From Lama glama (Eukaryota): a DNA stretch of 64,000 nucleotides. The stretch spans positions 74,278,001 to 74,342,000 of the forward strand of contig CM052816.1 of assembly GCA_028534125.1 (NCBI GenBank). The letters are read 5' to 3'. Every line of letters begins with the position of its first letter. Position 1 is the stretch's first letter. Of the stretch, positions 16,196 to 58,120 are shown piece by piece. Below the pieces are notes generated by a model. The model had not been told where the DNA came from. It saw nothing but the letters and a program-made list of their open reading frames with translations, and did not search any database. The translations under genes were made by a program, and so were the position numbers.

Positions 16196-16695
16196 NNNNN
16201 NNNNNNNNNNNNNNNNNNNNNNNNNNNNNNNNNNNNNNNNNNNNNNNNNNNNNNNNNNNNNNNNNNNNNNNNNNNNNNNNNNNNNNNNNNNNNNNNNNNN
16301 NNNNNNNNNNNNNNNNNNNNNNNNNNNNNNNNNNNNNNNNNNNNNNNNNNNNNNNNNNNNNNNNNNNNNNNNNNNNNNNNNNNNNNNNNNNNNNNNNNNN
16401 NNNNNNNNNNNNNNNNNNNNNNNNNNNNNNNNNNNNNNNNNNNNNNNNNNNNNNNNNNNNNNNNNNNNNNNNNNNNNNNNNNNNNNNNNNNNNNNNNNNN
16501 NNNNNNNNNNNNNNNNNNNNNNNNNNNNNNNNNNNNNNNNNNNNNNNNNNNNNNNNNNNNNNNNNNNNNNNNNNNNNNNNNNNNNNNNNNNNNNNNNNNN
16601 NNNNNNNNNNNNNNNNNNNNNNNNNNNNNNNNNNNNNNNNNNNNNNNNNNNNNNNNNNNNNNNNNNNNNNNNNNNNNNNNNNNNNNNNNNNNNNN
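16196..16695. other. Assembly gap (500 N)
   Basis: Run of N. Confidence 1.
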
Positions 16696-19109: not shown

Positions 19110-19492
19110 TGGCAGTGGGTTGAATGGTGGCCTCCCCAAAGACATGTCCATGTCCTAATCCTCAGAACCTTTGAATGTGACCTTATTTGGAACAAGTCTT
19201 TGCAAATGTAACTAAATTAAGGATCTTGAGATGAGGAGATTGTCCTGGACTATCTGGGTGGGTCTCAAATCCAATGACTAGTGTGCCCTTATAGGAGTGA
19301 GGTGGAGGTTTTGACACAGAGGAGGAGGCAAAGGACCATGGTGGCAGAAATTGGAGTCGTGTAACCATGGGTCAAGGAATCCTGACAGCTACCAGAAGCT
19401 GTGAGAGACAAAGAACGATTTCTCCCCCAGGGCATTCAGAGCGGGTACAACACTGCTGACACCTGAATTTCAGGCTTCTGGCCTCCAGAAGT
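19110..19492 (+). mobile_element. MLT1-type MaLR LTR
   Basis: 'gggttgaatggtggcctccccaaagacatgtccatgtcctaatcc...gaatgtgaccttatttgg...ctggcctccagaa'. Confidence 0.8.
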
Positions 19493-19925
19493 GACTTCTG
19501 TCACTGACCAGCGGTGTGATTTTATGCGAAGACGGCCAACTTTTCCTTCTGATGATCTGCCTAAAATCTGATGGAGCATCCCAAGCAGAAGGACCCTGAG
19601 TATCAATGGACATACAGTTCCCCCAAAGGATCAGGCACAAAGGATACTTTGCATCAAAGAGTAACCTTCAAAATAGCAAACGCTATGCTTCAGCCGCTCT
19701 ACCTGGAGTTCTTTAAAAAAGAGACAGACAAACGCAGGAACAAACGATGATAACTTTAATGCTATCCAGTCAACAAAACCACATCAACTTCGGAGATCCA
19801 GCAAGATGATTGGATTTTGGCCTGGATCTCATCACGTCTCAGCTTCTGAAGTAATTTGCAAGCTGAGAAAAAGGCACCGCCCACCCTTGATAGCGTTTTG
19901 TTGTAAACCTAAGCTCCCAGGAGAG

Positions 19926-19932
19926 TATAAAT
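19926..19932 (+). promoter_or_regulatory. TATA box of ANXA2R-like paralogue 1
   Basis: TATAAAT 57 nt upstream of the ATG at 19983; equivalent TATAAAT in paralogue 4. Confidence 0.7.
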
Positions 19933-19982
19933 TCGCCAGGAAAGGGTCCTTGAGAACTATCCTCCTCTCTGCGACCGAAGCG

Positions 19983-20510
19983 ATGGCGCAGAACTTTCCT
20001 CCCTGCGTGCGCGAGGCCTGGGATTCTGCAGCGGAGTCCCAGAAACCGGAGATGCTGCAAGTCTTGAGCTTAGCGGACCTTGCGGACTGGCAACTGCCCT
20101 TCTATCCTAAGCTGGGCCAGCTCTCTTGCTACCAGGAAGACTTGGATTGGGAATGCCTTTCCAGTCCCTGCGGGTTTCTGTGCACTTATTGCCCGAAACA
20201 TGGAGCCCGAGCGCCGAGCATCGGCAGGCGGAGCGCCGGGAGGCCCGCCAGGGGCCCGACGCCCGCGACCCGCTATGGTCCGGAGCCACAGGCGCCCCAA
20301 GAAAAGGCGGTCGCCGCTCCCGCAGCCTCGGTTGGCAGGTGGCGCCGCTTCCTGGGCCGCCTGTTGAAGCCCGAGAACGCTGCCGGCGGGGACCCTTCCA
20401 AGCGTCGCCCTGCTCCTGCCCCCGGGAGGCAGCGGATCCCAAGCAGATTTCGAGGCTGGGGGCGGCGGATCCGACTTGCAGTGGCCCGGAGGACCCGGAG
20501 CTGCGAATGA
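19983..20510 (+). CDS. ANXA2R-like paralogue 1, 175 aa, apparently intact
   Basis: MAQNFPPCVREAWDSA...WQLPFYPKLG...LSSPCGFLCTYCPKH aligns with ANXA2R at 26439; strong Kozak gcgATGG, TATA upstream, AATAAA at 20648-20653. Confidence 0.85.
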   Translation: MAQNFPPCVREAWDSAAESQKPEMLQVLSLADLADWQLPFYPKLGQLSCYQEDLDWECLSSPCGFLCTYCPKHGARAPSIGRRSAGRPARGPTPATRYGPEPQAPQEKAVAAPAASVGRWRRFLGRLLKPENAAGGDPSKRRPAPAPGRQRIPSRFRGWGRRIRLAVARRTRSCE

Positions 20511-20647
20511 GCCCCGAGATTTGAACTGAGCCCCTCACCGCCCCGGACAAGTGATGTTCCAGCCACATCTCTGCGTTTGCTCCATAGAGATGGAAGTCAT
20601 TTGTCTTTAGAATTCTTAGTGAAATTCCTTTTCGGTACTTAATACTT

Positions 20648-20653
20648 AATAAA
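20648..20653 (+). terminator. Polyadenylation signal of paralogue 1
   Basis: AATAAA followed by T/GT-rich sequence; conserved in copies at 39390 and 44309. Confidence 0.7.
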
Positions 20654-23083
20654 GGTGACGAAAAACGATGTAACAGTCCATTTTTCTTTCCCCAGAGGCC
20701 CTGGTTTGTCTTTTGGGGAAGACTAGGCGCACGGGCGGCGGTGGCCAGTACCAGTTCCCGCGCCGCATCCTCGGTCGCCGGGTTTTGCTCGGCACGGGCT
20801 AGACCCTGGGGTTTCCGATGGAAACAGGCATCCTGGGTGACGTGGGGAGGGGACTGGGGTGGAGCGTGGGCTTCCGTCTGACTCCGCGACACCCGCTGGG
20901 CCTCCCAGAACAGCAGATAGGCCGTCCGCAGCCCCAGCTCCGTGGCCCTGGCCCTTCTTGGCCTGGAGTCCTCAGGACCCTCCAGGCATCTGCACGCGGC
21001 TCTGCTGCCGCCTCCACCGCATTTCCCCCACTCCTCCCTGAACTCACCCAGAAGTTCACCCTCCCCTCAGGGACTAGACCCCAGCTAGTCTCCCTAATCC
21101 CTCTGAATCTCCGCAACACTTTAACCAGCAGCACCGGTCAGGAACTGGCTGAGCTGACCTGCTGCCAGATAGCCAGCGTGGAAGTCAAGGGTATAATGAT
21201 CCCGGACTAGTGGCCGGGAAACCAGCGCCCCCTTCCCAGACCCAAGAGGATGGGCCGAGCGCTCCAGGATCCGGCAGTGGGCATGCTCAGAGCAATTCCT
21301 CCTCCAACTGGCTGTCTTTTCCAAGGTGCCAGATTTCTCCATCCAAAAGGGACTTGAGTTAGGGCGTTCACCCCTTCCTGGGGGTGAAAGCCAGCTCTTT
21401 CTGGAGTAAAACGCCTTTCCAATGTGAATCACTGTATCAGGCTCAGCACAGGCCACGACTTAGAATCCTCCCAACTAGACGAAGAGGATATTAATCTGCT
21501 GCTTCTCCTGGGCCTGGCATCCTGAAGCAATTTACACTGAAGGTTAACATCAACATCTAGATTTCAGCACCTTGTTTCTGATGACTTATAGGTCCAGCAT
21601 TTGCCTTCCCTCTCTCCTCCACCTCTCTCTTGGCCCAGACATGCTATTACACTGTGTAGGAGAGTGAAAGTTTGGAACGTCATCTGTCTTGCTGCAAGGG
21701 GTTGGGGTCTGGAAGCAAGAAGTGGGAGCCAAGTTACTCCCCTCCCTACACTGGGTAGAAGCCCGAGTCTGACAACCTCCAGGGACTGATCTGAGGCTCA
21801 GGGGAATGCTCTATTTCTGTGCAGATGGGAACCACTCACTGTGTGGGAGAGAAATACTGAGGACTCAGAGACTGTCTCTGCACAGTAAGTAGTTTGGGAG
21901 TCCCCAAAAAGACTGCCTGGAGTTGACACTTGTGCTCCTCTCTGGCCCAAATTTAGCCCCAGGGAAGAAGAATACTGCAGATCAGGTGTCTGCGTGGAAA
22001 AGTCACAAAAACCCCAGTGTAGGTGGTGATGGGTGCCCACAGGGCAAGGATCTGGAGTTCTGCCCTCTCTGAGACTACCTGGGTGGCTACCTCAGTGCTT
22101 TCTCCTCCAACTTCGTTAGAAACACCCCCTTGAATTCAAGCCCTGTTGCTACAGTCACTGGCTTCCTTGTGTTCCAGTCCCCAGGGCATAGTTTGGGATT
22201 GTGCAGATATGACCATCATTTTTTAAAAAATCATACATTGGAAAACATGTCTGTTCTTTATAATTTCTTGCTTATAGAAGTGGGATTCTGGGTTAAGAGC
22301 ATTCATATTGAAATTTTTAATGCATATTGCCACATTGTCTTTCCAAAGATCCTTTTAAATTCATACACAAAAGTTCTGTTGGGAAGTTACTACTTTACCA
22401 ACAGTAGAACAAATGAAAAATTTTAATGTAGGCCACTATGGTAGTCAAAGTTATGTCATTTTAAAAAATGACACTTTGCATTTCATTGACCTTAATGAAC
22501 CCTGAACTGGGTCCCTGCTCCCCTGTCAGACACAAGCCCACCTCCCATCCCTTTTAATCCTGGCTCCATCCACCCAAATCAATTGCACAGGCAGAGAATA
22601 AGGAAACAGACTTTAATCATTGTGCACAATTGGAATTAACATGAAAAGCACGAATATTCTGAGTACATCTGCAAGAAACATCCTTAAGATAGTATTGATT
22701 CCCTGAAAAGAGATTTCTTATTGAAAAACCTGTCAGTAATTCAGGAATGAAAGGACAATAAAGAATATTCTGCACTACAGAGACCCTGAGGCTCATCCCC
22801 GAGCAAGGCTGGGGCCAGGGGAGAAGTCCAGACAGGCAGAATGAGGGCCTCCACTGGGGTGACTCCGTGACTCCAGTCCAGGGCATGGGTTGAAGGGTTG
22901 CCGTGTGGCAGGGCATAAGGCTGCCATCCTTCCTTACTTTGTGGAGTTCCTGGGTTTCAAGCCTCATTTTTCAGCAGTCTCAGGGGGTGGGGATGGGAGT
23001 GGGTGGGGCTGTCTTGGGATCCTGGGAGGCAATCTGGCTGCTTGTCTGTCCACCTCCGCTGCTGCTGGCATCTCCTGACTGGT

Positions 23084-23437
23084 TCAGGCCCTGTTGAGCT
23101 GCGTGGTCTGTAGCTCTGGCCTCTTCTTGGTGGGACAGTTGTTCCATCCCGGATGAGCCATTGGCTCCTGGGCTTGTGGGTCTCGACAGCGTTTTGGGCT
23201 GCTCTCAACTTGGGGACCGTCTGCATGCTCGGTGCAAGCACGAAGCAGCCTCTCACATGCACCATAGTGCCCGTCCCCGTAGGACTGGGGCATTGGCAGG
23301 AGGGGCGGCTCAGCGCGGGGAAGTTATCCAGAACCCAGGCCCAGGCCTGGTTCTGGGTTCAGGCCCCATGGCATGTGGGGCTCTGGATGTGCCCACCTCC
23401 AAGACAGCTCTTGCAGGGTGGATGCATGGGATTCCAT
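23084..23437 (-). pseudogene. Disrupted copy of the 117-aa divergent ANXA2R-family gene
   Basis: Same 354-nt span as 43026-43379; +1 insertion ~23350 gives TAA at 23324-23326 after 37 aa, then a -1 deletion ~23288; TATA lost; ATTAAA at 22612-22617. Confidence 0.8.
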
Positions 23438-24409
23438 CTCTTCAGCCTTCTTACTGGACTGGGACTAGTTGCCTGTCTAAGCAAAGGGGCAAGTGATTCA
23501 GTCATTTACTGAGTGTGTCTGTCTTGTATAGGACATCAGGAAACCTAAGTTCCAGATAGGTGGGGATAGGCACTCATTTACCTTTCAAATTGCCTTGGAG
23601 CCTCATGGGATAGAGGAGAAAACTGCGTCTTTCTGGGAGGCACTATGGAAATTAAGAGCGGTTTCATTGATGGAGTTAGAGGAGGGGGATGGGAGGAGAG
23701 GAAGTTCCCTGGGGAAAGTTCAGTCCTGGTCGGTTCCACTCCTGCAGGAAAAAACTCTCTACTCAGCAGGCAAAGCTGCCAAATTACACTTCACATGTAG
23801 GTCTAATAATTTAACAGCTCAGAGAGGATTGCCTGATTTTAGAGATGAGGTTCCATGATGGCAGATCCTCGCCAGAATACAAAGCTAGTTTCAGCAGGAG
23901 CTGGATTAAGATACCAGATTTTCATGTAGGCATATCAGGAAGGGAAACAAGTAAAGGAGTGATTAGGTAAGGGTAGGAAAAGGAGAGTGCTTACTTAGAG
24001 TTGTAATATTTCTATTTTTGTCTACAGTAGCTTAGTGGAATCAAAGAGAGATCTCAAGTTTGCCCTGATTTTCATACCTACACGACAAATTGAATTGAGT
24101 GAATGCCATGTTTTTTTTTATCTTGTTGGTAGGACCCCTACCCTATTTTATATGACTATGAATATTCTATCATTAGTGATTCTCATTTCTCTGCTTCCTT
24201 TCTTCCATATAATTTTTCTTGTTAATAACTACTGTACTTTTAATGAGTATTTTGGTAATTTTCAGTGTGGTACTATATAGTATTGTTTTGCATGCCTATA
24301 TATTCAACTTATGTAAAAGCAAATGTGTTCTCTTTAGGCAGTTTAGATAGAAATGAGCACTGGGCAGGGGGAGAGGAAGGGGAAAGGAACAACCCAGAAG
24401 ATAAAAGTG

Positions 24410-24902
24410 TGTCTGCATTCAGGAAAAAGGACTCCAGAAATTTTTACTTTCTCTAAATGAGGGCCAGCAAAAGAAGCCAGTTAAAATCAACACGCTGCAG
24501 CTGTGCGTAAGAGGACCAGACGCAACTTGAACCAATGAACCTGCCCAAAAGGGGATGGGCGTGCCAGAGCGTAGGAATCTGAGTTGTCAATCAACCAGAG
24601 CACAAAGAACCTGAGCTGTCAATCAGCTCCATCACTCAAAGAACCTGAGCCCTTAATCAATCACCAAAAAAAATGCCCCCAAGCCAAGATATAAAAACAG
24701 GAAAAACAAAGGAGCCACGCCATTTTTCCTCTCTTGGATTGGCCCGCTCCCAATTCTCAGGAGTGTACTATCTTTTACTACCTTTTTACTTCACTAATAA
24801 AACATCTTGCTTATGTCACGCTTTCTGTCTCTCATTAAAAATTCTTTTTTTTTCAGGTGACTAAGAACCGAGGTAATTGTTATTTCCCTTTTCCCGGTAA
24901 CA
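24410..24902 (+). mobile_element. Solo ERV LTR
   Basis: TG...CA ends, 5-bp TSD AAGTG (24405-24409 and 24903-24907), TATAAAA at 24690, AATAAA at 24796, short U3 repeats. Confidence 0.88.
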
Positions 24903-25861
24903 AAGTGATTCTTTAGGGTAGCAAATCTAGATATATTAGGGCCTGCAATTTTTAAATCGTAGCAAATTGCGGTTTCCGAACAGTGAGTCCCAGCAGCTCC
25001 TGGTTTGCCACGCCAGTGGAAGCGCCAAGGCCAAAGTATGCCCTTGGCAGAACCCTACCCCTCCCATGTGCCATCGCATTTTGGGCCGAGGACAGCTAGT
25101 GTCCGCCTGATGCCCTCTGATGGTGGTGGGACGGTGAGATTAGCCCTGAGCCACTGTGCCCCTTGGCTATTCCCTTAGTGTCAAGAGATGGGACTTCTTC
25201 TGTCACATTTACCCAAGTCTAGGAGGAAACTCAAAGTCATGACGTTACACGGTGGATTTAAAGTGAAAACAAGGATTTTTTTTTTTTTAGCCATAGAGAC
25301 GATAACTACCGCAGCGGTGTCCAGACTGAAGGGTTTGATTAAAGGGATTTTCATTATTTTAATAAAGTTAAAAATTTCAACCCATAAAATAACATAAACT
25401 AAGTTGAATATCAAGTACGTTAAATAGCAAGACAAGTAAAATTTTTAAATAAATAAAATGGAAAGGTTGTAAAATGTAACGATACTTTTAAATTAAAAAT
25501 GAAAGAATGAAGAGAAATCGAAAATAAATTATCCTCACACTGAGACGGTGTTTTGCTCTAAGGCAGCACCGGTCATTCCTCCACGCAGGGTGGTTTTCGG
25601 GGTCTCAGGCTGCTCCTTTCTGAAAGCCGGCGGTTTCTCTTTGTCTGCACAGCAGATCGCTCTCAAACGGGTAATTTGTCTTGGGCCACAGCACCACTGT
25701 TGACTGCTGCCAGTGCCGCTGGTGTCTGCGGTTTCTCGTCCGCGAGGCGGCCAGCGGCGGCACCGCTCCTTTTGCCCAGAGCGGTGGCTTCTGGTCTCCG
25801 CCGGGGCGCCGACAGCTCCCTGCGTGTTGCAGGGCTCCTTCTCTGTCGGGTTTGCTTATTG

Positions 25862-26438: not shown

Positions 26439-26933
26439 ATGGAGCAGCATTTTCTCCAGCCCGAGAAGGAGGCTTGGAATTGCGCAGAGGTGGAGCCAGA
26501 GCTGCAGCTTCCTGGCGGGAGCCCGGCAGATTCTGGGCCGTGGCCGCTTCCTTTCTACCCGGTACTGGGAGAGTCCTCAGGCCATCGCGGCGATTTCAAT
26601 TACGAACTGCTTTCCAGTCCTTGTCGGTGCCTGCCCTTTGACTTCTTGCCAAACAGACCCAGTCCCAGAGCCTGGAGCACTTTGGAAGCAAGCGCAGCCC
26701 AGCTCACAGCCACAGGAGAGAGGGACCCGGCAGAGGAACCCGACCAACCCCCAACGGGACCTGGTGACAGAGAGCAGGACAGCGGGCCACCTTCGGAGCT
26801 TCACCTTCCTCCCGTCGCCGCTTGGTGGAGCCAGAACCCGCTGGTCTCCGGCTGCTTAGAGTGGATTGGTCGCTCCCTGCATGCCTTGACCTGTGGCTGC
26901 TGCAGGTTCATTTTTGGCGCTAAGGAGCCCTGA
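26439..26933 (+). CDS. ANXA2R: Annexin-2 receptor (ANXA2R/C5orf39) orthologue, 164 aa
   Basis: MEQHFL...AW...GPWPLPFYPVLGE...LLSSPC...AEEPD...CLEWI...CC..I.GAKEP matches human ANXA2R as I recall it at both ends; gcgATGG Kozak; GC box and CATAAATA at 26346; AATAAA at 27006-27011. Confidence 0.9.
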   Translation: MEQHFLQPEKEAWNCAEVEPELQLPGGSPADSGPWPLPFYPVLGESSGHRGDFNYELLSSPCRCLPFDFLPNRPSPRAWSTLEASAAQLTATGERDPAEEPDQPPTGPGDREQDSGPPSELHLPPVAAWWSQNPLVSGCLEWIGRSLHALTCGCCRFIFGAKEP

Positions 26934-27254: not shown

Positions 27255-28273
27255 TGGTACCGAGTCCAAATTCGTTCTGCTCCACACTGGACAGGCCAAT
27301 AAGTCGGGAGACGAGGTGTTGGGGCAAGGAATAACAGCTTTATTTGGAAAGCCAGCAGATTGAGAAGATGAGGGACTAATATTCTAGAGAACCATCTTAC
27401 CCAAGTCAGAATTCAGTTTCCTTTTATACCAAAAAGGGGAGAGTGTGGTTGATTGCAAACTTCTTGGTATTGGAATCCTTTGTTCTTGGAGCTGTCCACG
27501 TAGGTCAGGTCATGGTGTTCCTGTAAACCTCCAACAAGACAAATGTTATTCTCTGCCCCGAAACCTTTCATCTCTATATGAATGGAAAAGTGTTTTACCA
27601 TTAAAGGTCAGTGTTGCCGACGAAATGAATCACAAAAATGTGGCTGACGAAATGAATCCCTGAGCGGTTGTGGTGCAAAAAAGTCTCCCGAGGCTCGGGT
27701 TTCTTTATTCTTATACCCCTCACACAAAGGAGCAACCCGAAGCCGTACCAAGCATCGCGAGACAGTATTTTTTGAATTGACGCAAGCGCACTACATCTAA
27801 GACGTTCCTCCTAGTCATTTCCTTATCCTAAGTATCTTTATTGCTCTCAGACCCTCCTGTTCCCAGGCCTGTTCCTTTTGAGGAACAGATAAACATCCTT
27901 GTCTGCAAACAATGTTTCTCCTGGGAAGAGGAAGGGTCTCTTGGCAGGAATTTCTGTTTGCAGATAAGTCCGGCCACTTCTGTGAGATGTCCCGCGTGCA
28001 GGCACACCCACAGTTTCCCTACTAAATCTCCTTCATCCTTGGCAGGAATTTCTGTTTGCAGATAAGTCCGGCCACTTCTGTGAGATGTCCCGCGTGCAGG
28101 CACATCCACAGTTTCCCTACTAAATCTCCTTCAGGTCAGAGCCTTGAGAATGTATATTTCAGGCTATAGGAAACATTCTTTTAGGAAAGGTGCAGAACCA
28201 ACATGATTAAGCATAGGAAACAGCACAGGGTTAGAGCTAAAACAGCTCTAACGTTGTAGTTCTTCCCTAGTAC
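27255..28273 (-). mobile_element. Solo ERV LTR (same family as 5389-5814), interrupted by a younger LTR
   Basis: 'ggagacgaggtgttggggcaagga' is the reverse complement of sequence at ~5740-5762. Confidence 0.85.
27612..28133 (-). mobile_element. Young nested solo LTR, possibly class II (betaretrovirus-like)
   Basis: TG...CA ends, perfect 6-bp TSD GGTCAG (27606-27611 and 28134-28139), near-perfect ~99-bp internal tandem duplication, CpGs retained. Confidence 0.85.
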
Positions 28274-39508: not shown

Positions 39509-40050
39509 TCAGCGGAGATGAGGGCTCTTGCGCCGAAAGGCTGCAGGGGAGGCAGCCCAAGTTCTTGGCGACTGCGCATTGGTCCGCTGCCACTTGTCTT
39601 GAGACTTCGAGTGGTGTCTCCCCAGGCCAGGAGGAGGGCGATGCTCCAGATGGCTCTTTGAGGTCAGAGGTCTCGGGATCCAGATTTTGGGTCCTCGATG
39701 TTGGAAGACCAGCCCAGAGAAGCTTTGGGGGCGGGCGGCGGCCGCCTCTTCCTCGGGCGCCTGTGGCTCCTGGCGTGTCGTGGGCTTTGGGTCCGGGGTG
39801 GGCAGCGAGGTTCTCTGCGCTCTGGGTCCGTGTTTGGGGCAGTAAGCGCGCAGAAACCCGCAGGGGGTAGAAAGTAGTTCCCTATTGAAGTTCTGGTTGT
39901 CCCAAGAGAGGTGGCCCAGCTTAGGATAGAAAGGGAGCTGCCATAACTCAGGGTCCACTAAGCTCAAGATTTGCAGCATCTCTGGTTTTCCTGGGGCTTC
40001 TCTGCAGAATCCCAGGCTTCCTGCACGCATTGAGGAAAGTTCTGCTCCAT
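39509..40050 (-). pseudogene. ANXA2R-like paralogue 3, frameshifted (possibly rescued by an alternative ATG)
   Basis: ATG 40050 reads MEQNFPQCVQEAWDSAEKPQ, then a +2 frameshift ~39988 gives TGA at 39964; the other frame continues KPEMLQILSL...WQLPFYPKLG...STPCGFLRAYCPKH; TATA degraded; AATAAA at 39390-39395. Confidence 0.8.
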
Positions 40051-43025
40051 CCCTTCCGCCACCGAGAGGGGGAAAAGTTTTCAGGGATTCCCTTCCTTTT
40101 GAATTATTATTCTGGGCTCTTATGCTTCCAACTAGAGAGTATTAGGGTGGATGGTGCGGTTTTCCTCAGCTTGGTAATTGCTTCAAAAGGCGGGACCTGT
40201 GGAGATTAAGGGAAAATCCAATCATCTTGGATGGGGCTGTTCCAAGCTGAATTGATTTTGTTGATTCAGAGAATTAAAGTTTTTGTGCTGTTGTTGTTTG
40301 TTTTTAAAAGAATGACAGGTAGAGGGGCTCTGTCAAGACAAGTTATTTGGAAGGTTAGTCTTTTATGAAAAGTATCCTAAATGTCTGACCCTTTTAGGGG
40401 AACTGTATATCCACTGATTCTCAGGGCCCTTCTGTTTGGAAAGTACTGTCAGATTTTACCTAGATGATCAGAATGAGACGTTGGCCATCTTTGCATGAAA
40501 TCACACTACTGTCAGTGAGACAAGTCAGACTCACACCCTGGGCTTCTGTTGTGGATTTCTAAGTCAAAACATTTTCAGAATTTTAGTCAACATGTAGGAG
40601 GGGAGGGATCAAGGTCTCGAGAGAGCCAGACACAGACCGTTTGGGTACAAGTTCTATCATTTCTGTAAGACTCAGCTAGTCATCTGGCCTTTCTTGCCTT
40701 CACACTTTTACCTGGACGACAGCTAAAATTTAATGTTTTACAAGGTAGCTTTCATGATTAAATTGGATAACAAAGGCCAAATAATTAGATATCCCAGGCA
40801 GAAAAGAAGTTGTTCAATTACAAATATTATTTTCATTATCATTCTTAGTGAGATGAGCATGGACATAAACATAACATCAATGAATAACAAACCCTAAATG
40901 CTGTCTTTTTGTGTGTGTTTAATCTTAGTGGACCGCTTTTGCCTTCTTGTGTCAAATCGATAGTGAAATTGCATTCCTTTACATCCTTCCTCAGATGTTC
41001 AAACACTCTGTTGGCAAACATGTCAGTGCATCCAAGCCTAGATTTCCTTCATCAGTCATTTATCTATCTAAACAAAGTCAGTTTAATTCAAAGAATTTTA
41101 AATGAGCACGTTTTGACAGCCTGCCGCGAGCAGGGTGCTGTGATGGGTGCTACATACACAGAGCTGTAGAACTGGCTCCTGCTTTGGAAGGTCTCACTTC
41201 TAAGGGGAGAGCAGAGTCCCAGTTAAGAGACCATGAAGACACAGCCAAATATTGTTTCCTATGGTGGTCGGCTTGATGCCAGGAATGAAAACTCTAAAGT
41301 TTAAGATGTTTGAGAGGACTCCACAAAAGCCAGTCTTTTTGCACAAGGTGAGGAGAAAAGACAATGGTAGGGATAAAAGTGAGAAAAAAGGAAACAGAAA
41401 TAAAGAAGACAATCAACATCAAAAAATGAGAAATAAGTAAATAAAGAAAGTGGATTCAAGTATGGACCACACAAGAGGCAGAGGGTTGGAAACTCTGGTC
41501 AAGACAGCCAATAGAGGGAGGTTGAAGGGGTTCGTTGGAGCAACTTGAATCTTTGCAGCTGACTTGGGGGTATGAAGTAATTCAAGCCAGAAAGCTCTGC
41601 TGGGCCAGGTTTAAGGGAAAGACAACAACTCTGTTCCCTTTGAAGTCTCAGCAGTGAGCTTATTGGCTCTGGTGCTGCAGAACCTTCTCAGAGAGTTGTT
41701 TGAACACCACTAATTTCCCCCAGAGGGTCAGGGGCAGCTAGCCTGTGTTACAGCTGCACCAGAAGGAAGCCACTACAGTGAGAACCAGCAATGTGGTCAG
41801 ACTGCAGATGATACCAGTCACCAACAAAGTGGAGATCACCTGATTTCAGACAAGGTCTACCCATTATTACATGCAGTTGTGATGTCTTAATATCTCTTTT
41901 AATCTGCAAAAGTTCCCCATCTCTTTTATTTTTCCCTTTCATTTTTTTTCACAGAAAATTGTATAATAAGCACAATGTCCTACCTATTTTTTTTTAAAAT
42001 ACTTTTCTGAGTATCAAGAATAGAAACATTCCACTGACCCTGTGAGCCAGCAGGGAGCAAACTCATTCTTCACTTTTGGGCATGTGAAACAGCAAGGTGT
42101 CTACCAGGTAGCTACTTTCTCAGGACAAGAATGAGGGGATTTCAAGATGGGAAGGAAGAAAGAGTATTTCAAGGATTCTACAAATGATCATTGAAATTGA
42201 TGTGCAATAATGTAGATGGATTTGAATAAAATCAGTCCATTTCTATACCAACAATAAGTTTTCATCAGTTTTTAGGGAAAAGGGTGGCATAGGAGAATAT
42301 ATATTTATGAGAAGAGGTCACAAGAATACATGTAGGCAGGGATGGGCTTCCCCTGCTGAGAGACAGCAGTGAACTGTTAGGGTCATCGTGTCCTGGCCAC
42401 TCTAGTAGTCAAAGTTATATGTCATTGCTTCACTTTGCATTTGTTTAATCTTATTGAGCCCTGACCTGGGTCCTAGCTCCCCTTTGAGGCACGGGCCCAC
42501 CTCCCCACCCCACCCACTTCGAATCCTGGCTCCACCCACTCAATCAATTGCACAGGCAGAGGATAAGGAAACAGGATTTAATCATTGTTCACAACTGGAA
42601 TACACAAGAAGCATGACAATTCCGAGTAAATCTACTAGAAAGGTTCTTAAGATAGTATAGATTCCACGAAGAGATATTTCTAATTGAAAAACCTGTCAAT
42701 AATCCAGGAAGAAAAGGACAAGTAAGGAATGTTCTGCACCAGAAACTTCAAGGCTCAACCCCTAGCAAGGCTGGGGCCAGGGGTTAAGTCCAGCCAGGTA
42801 GAATGAGGGCCTCCATTGGGGTGACTCAGTGACTCCAGTCCAGGGCATGGGTTGAAGGGTCGCCTTGGGGTAAGCACAAGGCTGTGATCCTTTCCTTGTC
42901 GAGTTCCAGCCTCAGTTTTCAGAAACTTCGGGGTTGGGGTGGGAGGTGGCCTGTCTTGGACTCCTGGGAGGTGATCTGGCCACAAGTCTGTCCACCTCCG
43001 GTGCTGCTGGCATTTCCTGGCTGTT

Positions 43026-43379
43026 TCAAGCCCTGTTGAGCTGCGCGGCCTGTAGCTTTGGCTTCTTCTTGGTGGGACTGTCGCTCCATCCTGGATGAGC
43101 CACTGGCTCCTGGACTTCTGGGTCTCGACAGCGTTTCTGGCTGCTCTCAACTTGGGGACCGTCTGCATGCTCGGTGCAAGCATGAAGCGGCCTCTCACAT
43201 GCACTATAGTGCCCGTCGCCGTAGAACTGGGGGCATTGGCAGGAGGGGCGGCTCAGCGCAGGGAAGTTATCCAGAGCCCAGGCCCAGGCCTGTTCTGGGT
43301 TCAGGCCCCGTGGCATTTGGGGCTCTGGATGTGCCCACCTCCAAGACAGCTCTTCCAAGGTGGATGCGTGAGGTTCCAT
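43026..43379 (-). CDS. Divergent ANXA2R-family protein, 117 aa, apparently intact
   Basis: gcgATGG Kozak; TATAAAA at 43462-43468; ATTAAA at 42577-42582; W13, WALDNFPAL and SACERPLHACTEH have the same spacing as the other family members. Confidence 0.72.
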   Translation of the reverse strand: MEPHASTLEELSWRWAHPEPQMPRGLNPEQAWAWALDNFPALSRPSCQCPQFYGDGHYSACERPLHACTEHADGPQVESSQKRCRDPEVQEPVAHPGWSDSPTKKKPKLQAAQLNRA

Positions 43380-43527
43380 CGCTTCAGTCTTCTCACCAGG
43401 CCAGGACGAGTTGCCTGTCCAAGCAAAGGGAGGAATGATTCAGTTCGGTACTTACTGCAACTTTTATAGTGTCTGTCTTGAACAGGGCGTTGGAAACCCA
43501 AATCCAAATAGGTGGGGATAGACACTC

Positions 43528-43542
43528 ATTTGCATTGCAAAT
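43528..43542 (-). promoter_or_regulatory. Octamer / PORE-like palindrome
   Basis: ATTTGCATTGCAAAT contains a perfect octamer ATGCAAAT on the minus strand, ~60 bp upstream of the TATA box. Confidence 0.6.
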
Positions 43543-45017
43543 TGCCTCGGAGCCTCATGGGGTTGAGCAGGAAAATGCATCTTTCTGGGAGGTGCTAGGA
43601 GAAATTACGAAAGGTTCCGGTGATTAAGTTGATGGAGGGGGTTGGGAAGAGAGCACGATCCCTTGGGAGAGAGGTAGATTCCTGGTCGTTTCAATTTATT
43701 GGAAAAGGCCTCGCTACTTGGGAGGCACCCCTAGGCAAAGTCACCCAGTTATGGAGTAGGAATTTCAAGGAGCACCACCATTCCAAACCCAGAAGCGCTC
43801 GAAGCATCCTGTCACGGCAGGGGAGGCTGGTTTTCGGGCCAGTCCAGGGTCATTATCCCCTTAGCTTCTACGCCAGCTATCTGGCAGCAGGTCAGTTCAG
43901 CCAGTCCCTGGCAGGCGTTGGACAAGAAGGTTGCGGAGAGTCGGAGGAGTAAGGGGCACTTGTTGGGATTAATTATCGCCTGAGGGTAAACTGGAGGAGT
44001 TCAGGGAGGGGTGGGAGGAATGCGGCGGATGCAGCCGCAGAGCCGCGTGCAGATGCTCAGAAGGCGTGCCTGCTGTTCTGGGAGGCCCAGCGCGGGTCGG
44101 AAAGTCAGATGTAAAGGCCACGCTCCACCCCATTCCCTTCCCCAACCCATCCTCCTCAGCCGGTGTGCACGGGAGACCCCGCGCCCAGCAAAGCCCAGAG
44201 ACCAAAGAGCCGGCACCAGCCACCGCCGCCCGGGAGCCTCGTCTTCCCAACAGGCAAACCAGGGACTCTCGGGAAGAATCACGGACTGTGACACCGTTTG
44301 TCGTCAACTTTATTGAGAAGCGAAAGCGCAGTTACTATTTTTGGAGTTCACATTGTGTTAAATGTATGCCTAAGGGAGCGGGCCATTAAAGACTTTGATA
44401 TGGTGGGTACTGTAATTAAATTACATTTTCTTAATGAGGAAAATGAAGCAGAAGGGATCAGCTCACTTCTGGAAGGCACTATTGAAACTCCATGGGTTTT
44501 GATGATTGCATCAAGCAGAGGTAGGGTTGTGGGGCGAGAAGGGTCTAGTTACTGACAATTTCCATAGGATATAGAAAGCCTCTCTGTGTTTCAGACAAGC
44601 CTGGACAAATTACACTCAGTAATTCTCGTATCAGAGCGGCATTGCCTGATTGTAGAGAGTAGATTCCACGAGATTAGATCATAACCCAAGATCACACAGA
44701 TAGTTCCTGCTGGACTGAGAACATAGGTCCTCAAGCATATGCCAGGTAGGGGAATTAGCAAAGGAATAATTAGGCTGGATTGGGAATAGCAAAGACTTGT
44801 GCCTACCTAGAATCGTAATTTTTCTACATTTGTTGACGCTAGATTACCTGAATCAAAGGAACATTCAAAATTGCTATGTCTTTCATACCTAAAGACAACT
44901 GGGTTGAGTTAATGTCACATTTTCTATAGTGGTTTTTGCTGACCCCTATCCTCTTTTAGGTAATTATGTGTATTCTATTCTTAGTTATTCCCCTTATTTG
45001 CTTTCCCTCTTCCACTG

Positions 45018-45517
45018 NNNNNNNNNNNNNNNNNNNNNNNNNNNNNNNNNNNNNNNNNNNNNNNNNNNNNNNNNNNNNNNNNNNNNNNNNNNNNNNNNNN
45101 NNNNNNNNNNNNNNNNNNNNNNNNNNNNNNNNNNNNNNNNNNNNNNNNNNNNNNNNNNNNNNNNNNNNNNNNNNNNNNNNNNNNNNNNNNNNNNNNNNNN
45201 NNNNNNNNNNNNNNNNNNNNNNNNNNNNNNNNNNNNNNNNNNNNNNNNNNNNNNNNNNNNNNNNNNNNNNNNNNNNNNNNNNNNNNNNNNNNNNNNNNNN
45301 NNNNNNNNNNNNNNNNNNNNNNNNNNNNNNNNNNNNNNNNNNNNNNNNNNNNNNNNNNNNNNNNNNNNNNNNNNNNNNNNNNNNNNNNNNNNNNNNNNNN
45401 NNNNNNNNNNNNNNNNNNNNNNNNNNNNNNNNNNNNNNNNNNNNNNNNNNNNNNNNNNNNNNNNNNNNNNNNNNNNNNNNNNNNNNNNNNNNNNNNNNNN
45501 NNNNNNNNNNNNNNNNN
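45018..45517. other. Assembly gap (500 N)
   Basis: Run of N. Confidence 1.
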
Positions 45518-45686: not shown

Positions 45687-45962
45687 CTAGGCAGACAGGT
45701 TTAGATCTGGTTCTAAAGTGGTCTGGGCTCTATACAAGTGTCTGTGCCCAGGGCAGGCCCAGCTCAATAGCCCACATGGCGTGGAAAGCAGTTCCCAGTT
45801 GAAATGTGGATTGCCCCACCAGGGCTCCCCCAGTCTGGGGTAGAAAAGGAGTGGCCATGGCCCCAAATCTTCTGAACTCAGAGACAAAGACACCTGGGGT
45901 TCCAGTGCTATCTCCACAGAATTCCAAGCCTGCTTCACACAGAGGCAAAAAAGCTGGGGCAT
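45687..45962 (-). pseudogene. ANXA2R-like paralogue 4, 91 aa, probably nonsense-truncated
   Basis: MPQLFCLCVKQAWNS...GPWPLLFYPRLGE...LLSTPCGLLSWACPGH; TATAAAT at 46044-46050; ANXA2R-like frame continues past the TAG; 3' end falls in the gap. Confidence 0.75.
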
Positions 45963-48489
45963 GACTTCAGCCTCTAGATCTGGAGACTGGAGAATCTGGG
46001 CTGAGAGAGGAGGCAAAGGACTGAGCACTCATTCAGTATGGGAATTTATACTGTTCGGGCTCTTGGGCAATCCCAAATTAGAGTGCATTAGGTAGGGTGG
46101 TGGCATTGCTTTTTGAGACAAATTGCTTCAGACGGCTGAGAGTGATGTTGTTAAGTCCAAAGTGTAATCCTATCGGGTGCAATTTCATAAAATTGAATTG
46201 GAATCAGTTCAGTTATTAATTGGATTAAAGTTAAAAATAAGAAAGGCTACATATGGGGTTACTGATTAAGAAAAGCCAGATGCTTTGTTTCCTTTATGTA
46301 ATGTCTGATGTTCACAGCACCTCCGCCAGGCAAGTGTCCTCTGCTTGTCCGAAGGCTTAAATCATTACCAAAATCAAAGCACAAGTTATGCTGGAGCTGA
46401 GATGGAAATGTGAAAGAAGAAGGTTTCAGTGGGGCGGACTGTTTGGAGAGGAGATGGGGACCGAAGTAATTGACCAATTCTCTACTCTTCACATGGGCTC
46501 CCAACTTCCTGTCTGGGTCCTCTACTTTGAACTCCTAAATTCCAAGGATTGAGAGAAGAGAAGGCAGGGAGGGAAAGGAAAGAGGAGCTTTAGATATCAA
46601 ATGATTAAATGGTTTGGGTTCCAATCTTGTTTCCTCCTTTACTAAACATATGTGATTATCATTTAAACTTTCTAAGCTGCAGTTAAAAAAAATCTATGAA
46701 GTGAGGACAAAACCCTCACTAATTTCAAAAAGTAGCTTTGAGTACTTAAAAAAATAATATAGGTAAGGTGACAGCTTCTCACACAATATAATGAATAACT
46801 TTGTAAGGGTATAATCATTATTATTTGATCAACACTGTACAATAGAAAGATAATCCCAGTGGAGAACAAATAGAAAATGTGGCTTTTAAAAACATCCCTG
46901 CTGTAAGTATATTGGATCCACAGTAAAGCTGTAACAAGTATTGCTACCCTCCATTTAGCATCTTCCATGACTAATTCTCCAATGTCATAAACTTTGCACA
47001 ATCAATTTAACAAACATATATTGAGAGCCTGCTTTTTGTCAGGTGTTATGAAAAGAGCTACACATATAAGGACAACGGAGGCTCATTCTTCCTCTCCTGC
47101 CTGAAGCAGGGGCAGAATTCTGCAGTCCCAGAGCTCCAGCTTGAAAGGGCTCAGGGGCTGCGGGATTTCTCCACATGGGAAACCGCTTTCAGAAAGAGCT
47201 CAGAACAGAGAGGAAGGTGGATGCAGCACAGACCGAGGTCATGAACATAAGATACACGCTTCAGCGTGGGGCCATTTCTTTTCGGTACCCTTCATTTCTA
47301 TGCATTTAAAACGTTTTCTGAATCACACCACTGCATTTGTTCAATAATAATGTAAGGAGATTTGTCCTCACTGGTTTTATAGATTGTGAGGGAATGTTTT
47401 TCAATGAAATTTTATTCCCCACCTCCAAAGTAAGTCATTTCATTGATTTATTTGTTTAGATGTCAAGCAGGAGAGCAAAAACACTTAGTTAATGGGAAAA
47501 TGCAAGTCCTTTGCACTCACCTTTTGCCTTCCAGGTTAAGCCTTAACATGTATTTGAAAGTACTAGCTTGCATTTCAAATCTAAGTTTGCTTTAAATAAG
47601 ACTAGTGGCCCAATTGTACAGTATTATTAGCTAATGGTAAGAAACAAAAGACATTCACATTGAAAATTAGCATGCAGAACCATTAAAGGAACAAAGTTTA
47701 AGCCTGACACAAGAATGGGGAAGATAGACAGAGTAGATCTTAACTGTTTTCAACACACACACACACACACACACCCCAATACACAACTATGTGAAATGGT
47801 GGGCGTGTCAATTTGATTGTTGTCATTTCACAATGTATACAGCCTGTTAAATAATTACGTTGTACATCTCCAAGTTAAAAAAAGAGTGGGAGCATAGAAA
47901 GAAGTTTGAACCAGAGAGAGAGTTTTCCTCCAGATGAGAGAATCAGGTTTCCACTCTGTTCTCTCCCCTCCAGTCACTCAATCATTTCTGACAACACAAA
48001 CACACTTAACTAATTCTTTTATCTCACATGGCACACACAGCCATGTCAGGATAAAAATTCTAACACCAGTAAAACGATAACCATTATAATTGGGGGCAAT
48101 TTAAAAAATCTTAGGTCTATCTCACTAGAGAGAAATTGTAAAATTACTGTCTTTTAAAGTCACTTGAGCTAGTTCCTCTTTGTGTGGTTATGATACCAAC
48201 TTGTTACACATTTAGGATCTTTTTTGTTTGTTTTAGTTTTAAAGAATTATTTTACATAATTAAAAAACAATTTTTGAAAGTATTAAAAATTTTCCCAAAC
48301 CAGTTCTACAATTATATTTAGAGGAGTTTAGCTTCTATCCAAGTGTCCTCCACTCTGTTATATATATTTATATGTAAATATATATAAAAGTATATATTTA
48401 AAGAGAGAGAGACTGCCTTCTCCCTTGGCTACAATCCTTCCCCCATTCTACGAGATCCCATAAAGGAGTTCTCACTAATCTTCTCTCTT

Positions 48490-55237: not shown

Positions 55238-57119
55238 CTCATACTGTTCTCGCTTTGCAGGTGAAAAATCTATTGACACAAAGTAAGTGTTGGGACTCAT
55301 ATCTGCACCCAGATAGTTCAAATCCCAGAACTCGGGATCTTGTAATTTTGCTCATTTGCACTTAAAAAAAATCTATGTCCTTTTATTGGGATGTTCAAAA
55401 GTAGAATATGAAAATAGGTAGATGTAAGTTGATCATAGACAGAGAGGGATTAGTGTTTTTTCACCAGCCTGTCCTCTCCACTGCCCAGCCCAGACACCAG
55501 GTTGCAGCCTCTTCCTAGCATAAGGCTGCTTGGAGATCTGAATTCTACTCCTGCCCCACTCACTAGTACTGTGAACTAAACTTCCCGCAAAAATCAGACA
55601 ATTCCTACCTGGAAGAGATGACGATGAGTAGATACCATGAACATTCTAGAGCAGACTTTCCCTGATGGTTAGAAGCTGTGAATAACTGCTCCCAAATGAT
55701 CTTTCTATATCAGGTCCTCTCCTGAAGTTTTTCCAACTCTGCTTCTCCTCCAGCCCATACTACATTCAATTCAACTTTGAAAAGTATCATCTAAGATAGT
55801 CTAATTTCCCACTATTCTGCCCCCCCCTTTTTTTTTGGATTTCTGATACCCTAAGAGGCCTGGAACAAACTTCACTTATCACTTAGCTCAGACACACTGC
55901 TTCTTCAGGTCTAGAGATGAAGCTATGACACAGCCATGCTTTTCCTGTAGGAATCAGGCTTGGAATTCTGCAGTTGAGGAGGCAGAGCTTCAGGTGTCAT
56001 GAGCCCTATTCCAGGAATCTTTCAGGCCAGTTGGCACTACCTTATTACCCCCTTTCAACCACAGCTCTGAATGCTACTTGGACTTACTCCACTGTCTTTG
56101 AGGGTTGTCAGAATGGGTGTTGGCATTGATCTTCAGTGACATTGATTTAAAATGCCAGAATTGATGGAATCTAGGGGAAAATTGGAACATTCCATTATGG
56201 AAACATTGTTACTAGTTGCAATTCCTGGAGTTGCTTTCATAGGGAAAACCAAAAGCAGAAAATTAAAAATAAAAATGTGGATTACACTGTCCAAGTCTTG
56301 TCTCCATTACACTTTATATACCTGAAGAACACTCATTTAAAACTCTCCATTTTTACTTGTTCTTTTCCTCTAGATCAGTTTGCCTAGTGATAGACAAATC
56401 ACTAAACAGTGAATCTTCTAAATAGGTTGCTGGAAGCCAATGTACCATTTTTACTTCTTCCAATCCTTTCGTTTACTGAGCAGTTTTCACTGACAGTTCT
56501 TATCAACATTTTAAAGAATGCTGTATTTGTGTCTGTCTCAACTGTTTTTCTGCTGCTGCCAGTAAATTTGAAATAAAAAATTCCTAGGAAAAGAAAAGAT
56601 CAAGCCTGACCCTTTACATAATGTTAAATGCTGATGGTACAAAATGCAGAGAATGAGCTTAATTTTGTAAATATATGTATTACATGCATTTCCACAAATA
56701 CACATATATATGAGAAAAATAAGTGAAAATGTTAACAGTGGTACCTGTTGAAATTATAGGTGGTTTATTTTTATTCTGTTTTCATTTTCCATGTTCTTCA
56801 TGAGTGCATACTATTTCTGTAATATTAAAAAGGGTTACCACAGGGATTAATTCATATGCATTAAATATATAACAAATAACTTTAGGAAATAGACCTGCAA
56901 ATTCCAACTGTGCCTCTCACCAGCTGTTGATTTTGGGTAAATTAAAACGATCCAACGTCTCCTAGCAGGCTTTCTCACTTGATACACGTGTATGATGCAT
57001 TTCTTCCTAGTGAGGCTAAAATGATACCACATGGAGGGACTTGCGTACATTCAGTAGTGATTCTTTGCTACCGAGAGAAACCAGCTGAGTCCAACCCTTA
57101 ATCCAAGGTGGTGTTGATA

Positions 57120-57144
57120 TACAGGCGCCTCCCGCGGGGCTCCC

Positions 57145-57198
<54 letters not shown>

Positions 57199-58120
57199 GG
57201 CGCAGGCGCGGGCCTGGCCAGGGCTCCGGCGTCTTCTCCCCGGGACCGAGCCGCCGCTTCCTTTCGCCTCCGCACCTCGGTTGTTGGGTGACATCCTCTC
57301 CCCTCTGGCCTCGGAAGGATGAAGTTCCATCTCTTCCCCAGGCTCCGCGAGTTCTCTGTGGGTACAGTGGGGAGACGGGGGTCGTAGCGGGTGACTAGGA
57401 ACCAGATGGCGACCTCCATTCTTCCAGGTAGGCTTGGGGGTTGGCTCGCAAGGCGGGGGTGGAGGGCACAGGGTGGGCGGCCCGAAACCACAGCAGGAAG
57501 CCTCGGGGTTGGGGTGAGGGGCGACGCTAATAGGTCTAAGAAGGGCCCAGGAAGTTCCTTCATTCTCAAAGGGCTCCAGCCAAGAGCACCTGGAACCGGC
57601 GGGTGGCAGAGCCACGTCCAGGATCGGGGGGTGGGGGGGCTGGGGCAAGGCGAGCGGGCAGTGGAGCCGGCTAGGTCCCCGCCGCCTGGTCCCAGCGCGC
57701 TCAGGACCCCAGCGCAGCCCCTTCCTCTGGTTTTTCCCGCTCCTCGTCCGCCCCCACTTCCTCCCATTCCTTTCATCACCACCCAGATGCCTGCAGCCGC
57801 CAGCCTCTCCTCCCCAGGGGCCCACAGAAGCGACAGCAGCGCCGCAGGAGTGAGGGAGGGGGCCCGCTTTTTTGCGGCAGCCCGGGGTCTGCGCTGGCCC
57901 TGGATGCAAGGGTGGGCTCCGCGCTAGCCGTTTCCCCCAAATCGCCGCGGATTTGCGGCCACACGGGGCCACCTAGTGGACAGCGAGTGTCAGAGCACGA
58001 GGAGGCCTGAGGGAGGGTGACCCGGGTGAATCCGAGGCACACCAGGCTTTCCGAGAAAGGGGCAGCTTCTCGCGCGCGCAGCTTCCGGCCCGAAGTAAAT
58101 CTCTGCGGGAGCTTGGGATA
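57120..58120. promoter_or_regulatory. CpG island / probable promoter
   Basis: ~1 kb GC- and CpG-rich; candidate splice donor CAG|GTAGGC ~57427; CTCF-like GGCCACCTAGTGGA at 57967. Confidence 0.8.
57144..57213. repeat. (GGCGCG)n hexamer repeat, ~11 units
   Basis: Seen directly; two GGCGCA variants near the 3' end. Confidence 0.95.

Follow-up and report, generated by a model that had tools for sequence, protein, structure and literature searches.

A PORE-like element and a TATA box in the putative promoter of an unnamed sister branch of the ANXA2R/RESIST family

In this work we propose that the minus-strand DNA upstream of a 117-codon ORF, in a 64,000-nucleotide stretch of Lama glama DNA (the window), serves as the proximal promoter of a live gene without introns from an ancient sister family of ANXA2R/RESIST, and that this promoter contains a 15-mer bound by a POU protein; we give this reading as a whole a probability of about 0.55. 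Common ancestry of the sister family and RESIST is very likely on the basis of profile and DNA comparisons, and the intact copy in all likelihood has a live TATA promoter. The data support the 15-mer as a real, conserved promoter element of the intact gene; it is probably bound by an Oct-family factor, and action of a POU protein on it is the reading that we somewhat favour. What is new is the unnamed sister branch of a known family, PORE sites and ANXA2R/RESIST being already known. The features concerned are the following:

43026..43379, minus strand: intact single-exon ORF of 117 aa, from the 'WAWA' sister family of ANXA2R/RESIST
42577..42582, minus strand: candidate ATTAAA poly(A) signal, kept in the intact copy, its twin and L001 (a non-camelid copy)
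43432..43438, minus strand: initiator-like TCATTCC, with a predicted start near 43436; absent in L001
43461..43468, minus strand: TATA box TATAAAAG, 89 nt upstream of the intact-copy ATG; word and distance identical in L001
43528..43542, minus strand: 15-mer of PORE shape, made of two inverted halves that resemble the octamer (7/8 and 8/8) and have a one-base overlap
43525..43558, minus strand: conserved upstream block of 34 bp that includes the 15-mer, 32/34 identical to L001
22431..23736, minus strand: pseudogene twin, 81% identical to 42395-43692; its TATA deletion is near 23515, its 15-mer at 23576-23590 and its ATG at 23437
19983-20510 (plus), 26439-26933 (plus), 40050-39509 (minus), 45962-45687 (minus) and about 55926 (plus): five ANXA2R/RESIST copies within 36 kb
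45690..46130, minus strand: the upstream tandem neighbour, an ANXA2R/RESIST copy with an ORF stop at codon 92 and a homologous promoter (ATTTG at 46123, TATA at 46050)

The window corresponds to a camelid ANXA2R cluster, as four of its frames match PF15721 and the best relatives include the Camelus ferus annexin-2 receptor. Two of the five ANXA2R copies are long and open, one is frameshifted near codon 21 (the Camelus ferus protein P0243 is intact), one is stopped at codon 92 and one is decayed. Inverted homologies between 43730-44317 and 20645-21326 (66%) and between 39735-40527 and 19492-20317 (73%) represent older duplications of ANXA2R units with their 3' flanks. The window also contains two 500-N assembly gaps (16196-16695 and 45018-45517, the second separating the ANXA2R copy at 45962 from the intact gene), a 98-bp tandem duplication at 27940-28133 that is 99% identical, and a CpG-rich island with a GCGGGC run at 57100-58100.

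The intact gene is predicted to give a single-exon mRNA of about 880 nt. Its 117-codon ORF had no match in Pfam, a PDB sequence search with the protein returned 0 matches, the ESM Atlas search gave no usable match and Foldseek found none for a low-confidence AlphaFold model, in which a tryptophan-rich helix at residues 28-42 is the only confident part. The family is characterized by the core EPxxPxxLxxEQAWAWALDNF, and members made up 22 of 24 candidates and 53 of 8000 candidates; they form 36 clusters at 50% and are frequently found two per contig. The named records, all 'hypothetical' or 'uncharacterized', come from ibex, sheep, reindeer, elephant seal, horseshoe bat, fruit bat, Asian elephant, mole-rat and cotton rat, and no primate-named member was present among the named records found. 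One wood-mouse member is a fusion model named myoferlin-like. The public gene models P0083, P0111, P0132 and P0097, in which the family is fused to the ANXA2R N-terminus in seal or to a myoferlin-like sequence in wood mouse, are probably annotation artefacts. As the seal models P0083 and P0132 join the family ORF to the ANXA2R N-terminus, they show that the tandem order in the seal is the same as in the window. Contig X10, over 43216-43379, shows one more diverged copy, with 5 bases inserted and other flanks, so that the family has at least three copies in that organism.

The members also differ in their C-terminal ends. In those of artiodactyl type, a frameshift near codon 92 (43026-43110 of the window, minus strand) has put a short basic SPxKKRPK-type end in place of the long tail seen in other mammals, and at the intact copy this old tail is still readable in another frame. 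Classified by pattern, 52 of the fetched proteins present the short basic end and 113 the longer tail. We take the basic end to resemble a nuclear-localisation signal.

The relationship to ANXA2R was supported by comparison of profiles. Alignment of the family and ANXA2R profiles with hhalign gave 92%; when the fused models were removed it gave 90% with a score of 37.3 (column-shuffled maximum 21.4, 0/100; reversed 8.9), and with the 41 PF15721-bearing cores 92% with a score of 38.5 (column-shuffled maximum 19.7, 0/60; reversed 11.3). The ANXA2R HMM was made from 41 of the 47 PF15721-bearing cores, six without the anchor pattern being omitted, and among 800 window frames it ranked the intact ORF fifth (E 5e-5), directly behind the four canonical copies. 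In the reverse test three ANXA2R frames came top after self-matches. The 32 family cores obtained between -1.1 and 28.6 bits with the ANXA2R HMM (20.4 for the intact ORF; reversed sequences at most 2.0), 17 of them staying below 10 bits. The Pfam PF15721 gathering score (27 bits) was not reached by the intact ORF, and of 23 members none matched at E<=1 and two at E<=10, one of which is a fused seal model. At the DNA level, the promoter plus ORF compared with the five ANXA2R copies gave z scores of 2.5-7.3 for the intact copy and 4.6-11.1 for L001 (200 dinucleotide shuffles), and the promoter by itself gave z under 2 in 4 of 10 comparisons.

An unrooted tree of 56 rows and 87 columns separated 32 sister-family rows from 24 ANXA2R rows by one 100/100 branch, and the sister family is not placed inside the canonical ANXA2R clade. 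Because the sister side includes elephant and rodents, and the ANXA2R side elephant, armadillo and primates, the split would be older than the placental radiation. Both branches share the cluster, the tandem orientation, the single exon, a homologous promoter and 5' context and, along the N-terminal 60-85 residues, an alignment register almost free of gaps (EP-x-M/L ... W-x-L-x-x-[FY]-P-x-L ... C-G-L-L-x-x-A-C). However, the sister family has EQAWAWALDNF in place of the GPWPLPFY core, falls below the Pfam cut-off on its own side of the 100/100 branch, and seems to lack a RESIST-type C-terminal region, its artiodactyl members closing with the short basic tail. As to the region needed for IFNB1 mRNA stabilisation (helix 168-177 in the mouse protein), an ad hoc C-terminal pattern was present in 12 of 47 ANXA2R proteins and in 0 of 218 sister-family proteins, the protein of the intact copy being only 117 aa long. 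No description of the sister branch or of its promoter was found in the ANXA2R literature as represented by titles and abstract openings, PMC13500052 and part of the RESIST preprint; the work on the horseshoe-bat expansion (Tian et al. 2025) may treat these copies.

Regarding the promoter, the sequence-only reading had described a 15-bp palindrome one mismatch away from the Oct dimer element PORE, and both descriptions were correct. The minus strand from 43542 to 43528 reads ATTTGCAATGCAAAT, with 7-bp arms flanking one base, and matches the PORE reference sequence ATTTGAAATGCAAAT (PMC5286379 and PMC4576985) at 14/15 positions. The 15-mer lies at about -106 to -92 relative to the predicted start site. 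That site would fall in TCATTCC, an initiator-like word that lies 32 nt downstream of the first T of the TATA box.

Palindromy was rejected as a signal in itself, as such palindromes are ordinary in the window (15 perfect ones with arms of at least 7 outside TA runs and microsatellites, the 15-mer included). TATAAAA is also ordinary, with 23 sites against 26.9 expected, and so is the bare octamer, with 7 against 3.2; several of the octamers share one flanking context within repeated elements. PORE with at most one mismatch occurs once, when 0.026 sites are expected under an order-2 Markov model for a motif that was picked after the fact. Furthermore, the ATTTG and CAAAT arms 5 bp apart constitute the sole exact site of this kind in the window (0.20 expected), and L001 has both arms too. 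None of the three copies has the exact consensus, the intact copy matching it at 14/15 positions and L001 and the twin at 13/15 each. A second PORE-like word, ATTTGAAATGCAAGC at 47566-47580 (minus strand, 13/15), precedes the ANXA2R copy at 45962 by 1.5 kb; it was discarded as a second PORE because it is within chance (0.48 expected per window).

L001 is the sole non-camelid copy recovered as DNA, one locus from metagenomes out of 375 pattern matches; further orthologous DNA was found in 0 of 15 prokaryote genomes and 0 of 39 viral contigs. It is 73-74% identical to both camelid copies and can therefore be used as outgroup. Conservation of the motif across species was borne out in part: the TATA, the spacing and the two PORE arms are retained in L001, the perfect palindrome and octamer are not. 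Its 15-mer, ATTTGCAAGGCAAAT, has halves of 7/8 and 7/8, with a G where the intact copy has the T that completes the octamer (8/8). The 34-bp block is far more similar between the two than the rest of the promoter and leader (68%; binomial P about 0.0006-0.004), and the TATA block is identical at 17 of 18 positions. The gap between the 15-mer and the TATA is 59 nt in the intact copy and 60 nt in L001. In a contig of a sister organism (X3, covering 43299-43552, one contig with a depth of 2.9) there are six differences, none of them in the 15-mer or TATAAAA, suggesting that the octamer-completing T predates the split from that organism. Contig X1 has 10 differences over the promoter, none of the eight listed being in the 15-mer, and we did not count it as confirming. 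Finally, the TATA position is translated as [TSP]I[KNQ] or YK in 27 of 29 proteins with gene calls at least 58 residues upstream, including ibex and horseshoe bat, although this count contains many near-duplicates and ambiguous codons and was made without a control. None of the read-through translations extended across the 15-mer.

The pseudogene twin had been described as frameshifted, without TATAAAA and with a broken octamer. In fact, a 12-bp deletion runs through its TATA, and a +1 indel followed by a -1 indel leads to a stop after 37 codons, as seen in one assembly; by eye, a weak TATACAA persists 93 nt ahead of its ATG. The twin 15-mer, from 23590 to 23576, reads ATTTGAAAGGTAAAT as claimed, with halves that match the octamer at 6/8 and 6/8 (by hand) and one PORE arm broken. 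The broken octamer is partly an ancestral state and not a loss, however, because the G at octamer position 2 is shared with the outgroup L001, so that the T completing palindrome and octamer arose on the intact-copy branch; the changes specific to the twin affect positions 6 and 11 of the 15-mer. An LTR-like segment (about 24330-24910, with TATA, AATAAA and TG...CA ends by eye) precedes the twin promoter by about 0.7 kb.

PORE has been described as two 5-bp arms, ATTTG and CAAAT, 5 bp apart, in which some spacer changes are neutral and others are not (PMC4576985), and as two inverted octamers overlapping by one base (PMC10812921). A variant, ATTTGAAAGGCAAAT, is described as an Oct4-binding alternative PORE (PMC2637973), served as PORE site for Oct-1 in a construct (PMC5946862) and behaved as a weaker control in PMC8119428. 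This variant is one base away from the 15-mers of L001 and of the twin (14/15 in both, by hand for the twin). The element of the intact copy has the same ATTTG-N5-CAAAT layout, but differs from the known PORE in having C at position 6 in both live copies (intact copy and L001), in being proximal-promoter instead of intronic, in being a putative site known here from its sequence, and in a left arm inherited from ANXA2R-type promoters that do not have the right arm. Octamer-plus-TATA promoters, such as those of immunoglobulin V genes and histone H2B, offer another comparison. The intact copy also presents a perfect octamer, ATGCAAAT, upstream of a canonical TATA, although here 59 nt separate the octamer from the TATA and in L001 it is imperfect.

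Part of the element is shared with ANXA2R promoters. GYAATTTG, the left part of the 34-bp block, recurs in the promoters of ANXA2R copies, and in those at 45962 and 19983 the sequence G-A-A-G-(C/T)-AATTTG is placed 73 and 72 nt ahead of a TATAAATT, which in the copy at 45962 lies 88 nt upstream of the ATG; the distance is 74 nt in the intact copy and 75 nt in L001. The right half in the same two ANXA2R copies matches the octamer at 2-3 of 8 positions. As the left arm and the TATA are common to ANXA2R promoters, both would predate the PORE shape, which the sister family would have reached by adding the right arm. These data also suit a different explanation, namely that function resides in the older left part, G(A/T)(A/G)G(C/T)AATTTG, to which a factor other than a POU protein would bind (for instance a bZIP of C/EBP type), and that the likeness to PORE is accidental and due to one recent substitution. 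The left arm is the deepest-conserved part and would suit such a factor equally, the octamer-completing T is derived, and Resist1 is reported as myeloid in PMC12310523. We nevertheless consider this explanation unlikely, because the intact copy and L001 do not differ in the right arm and its flank (CAAATGAG), the spacer beyond being conserved at 12/32 positions, a conservation that rests on one comparison, a single non-camelid promoter having been read as DNA. Moreover, while TGAAGYAAT in three ANXA2R promoters fits the C/EBP consensus, the sister-family copies lack the first T of that consensus, and we found no precedent in the literature for an overlapping Oct-1/C-EBP site.

A POU protein at the 15-mer remains our preferred reading, and the question is which one. 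The sequence-only reading had pointed to POU5F1-type regulation, which we do not follow: nothing favours Oct4, since Oct1, Oct2 and Oct6 likewise bind the octamer and PORE, and the relatives of the gene are active in immune cells (PMC12310523). We consider it doubtful that the 15-mer is a genuine site for Oct4 dimers of PORE type, driving the gene in early embryos or pluripotent cells, even though the 14/15 match is rare, both arms are whole in the intact copy and L001 and one is broken in the twin, and changes in the spacer can be neutral for dimer formation (PMC4576985). According to the same paper, ChIP gave little evidence of PORE use by Oct4 in ES cells, and little use of PORE in vivo has also been described for OCT1/2-BOB1 (PMC10812921). 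The fact that annotators have left the family unnamed despite a conserved ORF would fit a narrow expression, and L001 carries upstream a word of possible embryonic significance:

L001 28-38, and window 43621-43631 and 23668-23678, minus strand: DUX-type word TAACCCAATCA, mismatched at one position in each camelid copy, the position differing between the two

This word fits the DUX-type consensus. A promoter driven by DUX is a weak candidate, given that the word is altered in both camelid copies and one-mismatch matches are common (17 seen, 8.7 expected). A DUX4 motif is given in PMC10514451, and DUXC and OCT motifs have been reported to mark bovine EGA and blastocyst chromatin (10.1101/2023.04.10.536281). 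Another link to the embryo would be a possible identity with mouse Tcstv genes, which are also short, single-ORF and multi-copy. The Tcstv cluster presumably adjoins Resist1/2 in the syntenic interval, which would favour an embryonic role. It has been described as a 2-cell gene cluster on distal mouse chr13 (PMC4728397, PMC11912362). In Pfam scans and match names, however, no family member matched a Tcstv-type model or name. The fullest version of the Oct4 proposal, in which placentals would have a second, unannotated RESIST-like branch of CCR4-NOT modulators whose expression depends on a PORE-type site for POU dimers (Oct4, early embryos) and not on the immune programme of its sister, seems to us quite improbable. 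If true, it would mean slower deadenylation of selected mRNAs around genome activation or pluripotency and a direct link between Oct4 and mRNA decay, with a natural octamer gain (intact copy) beside a loss (twin) in camelids.

The co-loss of promoter motifs and ORF in the twin had been taken to imply selection on the intact copy. There is some sign of weak purifying selection: since the duplication, the intact copy shows 6 synonymous and 7 non-synonymous changes (P=0.045 against neutrality) and the twin 2 and 10 (P=0.77), and the intact copy compared with L001 has a dN/dS of 0.51 (P=0.017), or 0.34 over codons 1-50 (P=0.053). On the other hand, the contrast between the two branches is not significant (Fisher P=0.20), total changes are similar in intact copy and twin (13 and 12 in the ORF, 17 and 16 in the promoter), and the changes in the 34-bp block, three in the twin and one in the intact copy, are within background (16 and 17 per 210 nt). 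The co-loss argument is accordingly weakly supported, right in direction and feeble alone, and it is the cross-species conservation that bears the weight. That both copies are silent relics, with motif and ORF persisting by inertia, would agree with these near-equal substitutions and the non-significant contrast, but is very improbable in view of that dN/dS value, of a frame that is open, with common start and core, in 218 of the 242 proteins fetched from the family search (194 if the core is taken strictly) and of the conserved TATA, spacing and poly(A) word.

According to our preferred reading, TBP would start transcription near 43436, and the perfect octamer of the intact copy should certainly be able to take an Oct monomer, a PORE-type dimer being possible. 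The likeliest binder would be the ubiquitous Oct1 or the lymphoid Oct2 rather than Oct4. As for its history, the older left arm and the TATA, 72-75 nt apart, would come from the common ancestor with RESIST; the right arm would have been added in the sister family, one G-to-T change on the camelid intact-copy branch would have completed the octamer, and the twin would have decayed following a local duplication.

RESIST (ANXA2R; mouse Gm21188/Gm36079) has been described as a CCR4-NOT-binding stabiliser of IFNB1 mRNA that is expressed in immune cells, binds CNOT1 and CNOT9 and is predicted to use the tryptophan pockets of CNOT9; its C-terminal region is needed for IFNB1 mRNA stabilisation, CCR4-NOT being still bound without it (PMC12310523). 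By homology only, we infer that the sister family may also bind CCR4-NOT, and the 117-aa protein most likely acts as the RESIST N-terminal half does, with a short tryptophan-rich helix that would dock on CCR4-NOT through the CNOT9 tryptophan pockets and tune mRNA decay. As the essential C-terminal region of RESIST seems to be lacking, it may, speculatively, modulate or oppose RESIST instead of copying it, and the simplest reading is that of a short CCR4-NOT-docking modulator without effector tail.

The motif alone is of modest significance, as it is one promoter element, and the gene is the larger result. The set of promoters nevertheless provides a natural experiment on a putative POU site, in its ancestral (7/8+7/8), improved (7/8+8/8) and decayed (6/8+6/8) forms. 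The sister family poses a direct question as to whether the EQAWAWALDNF helix binds CNOT9 and in which cells the gene is expressed. Moreover, with members from elephant to rodents, bats, seals and ruminants that the Pfam model misses, this sister family would widen the RESIST family.
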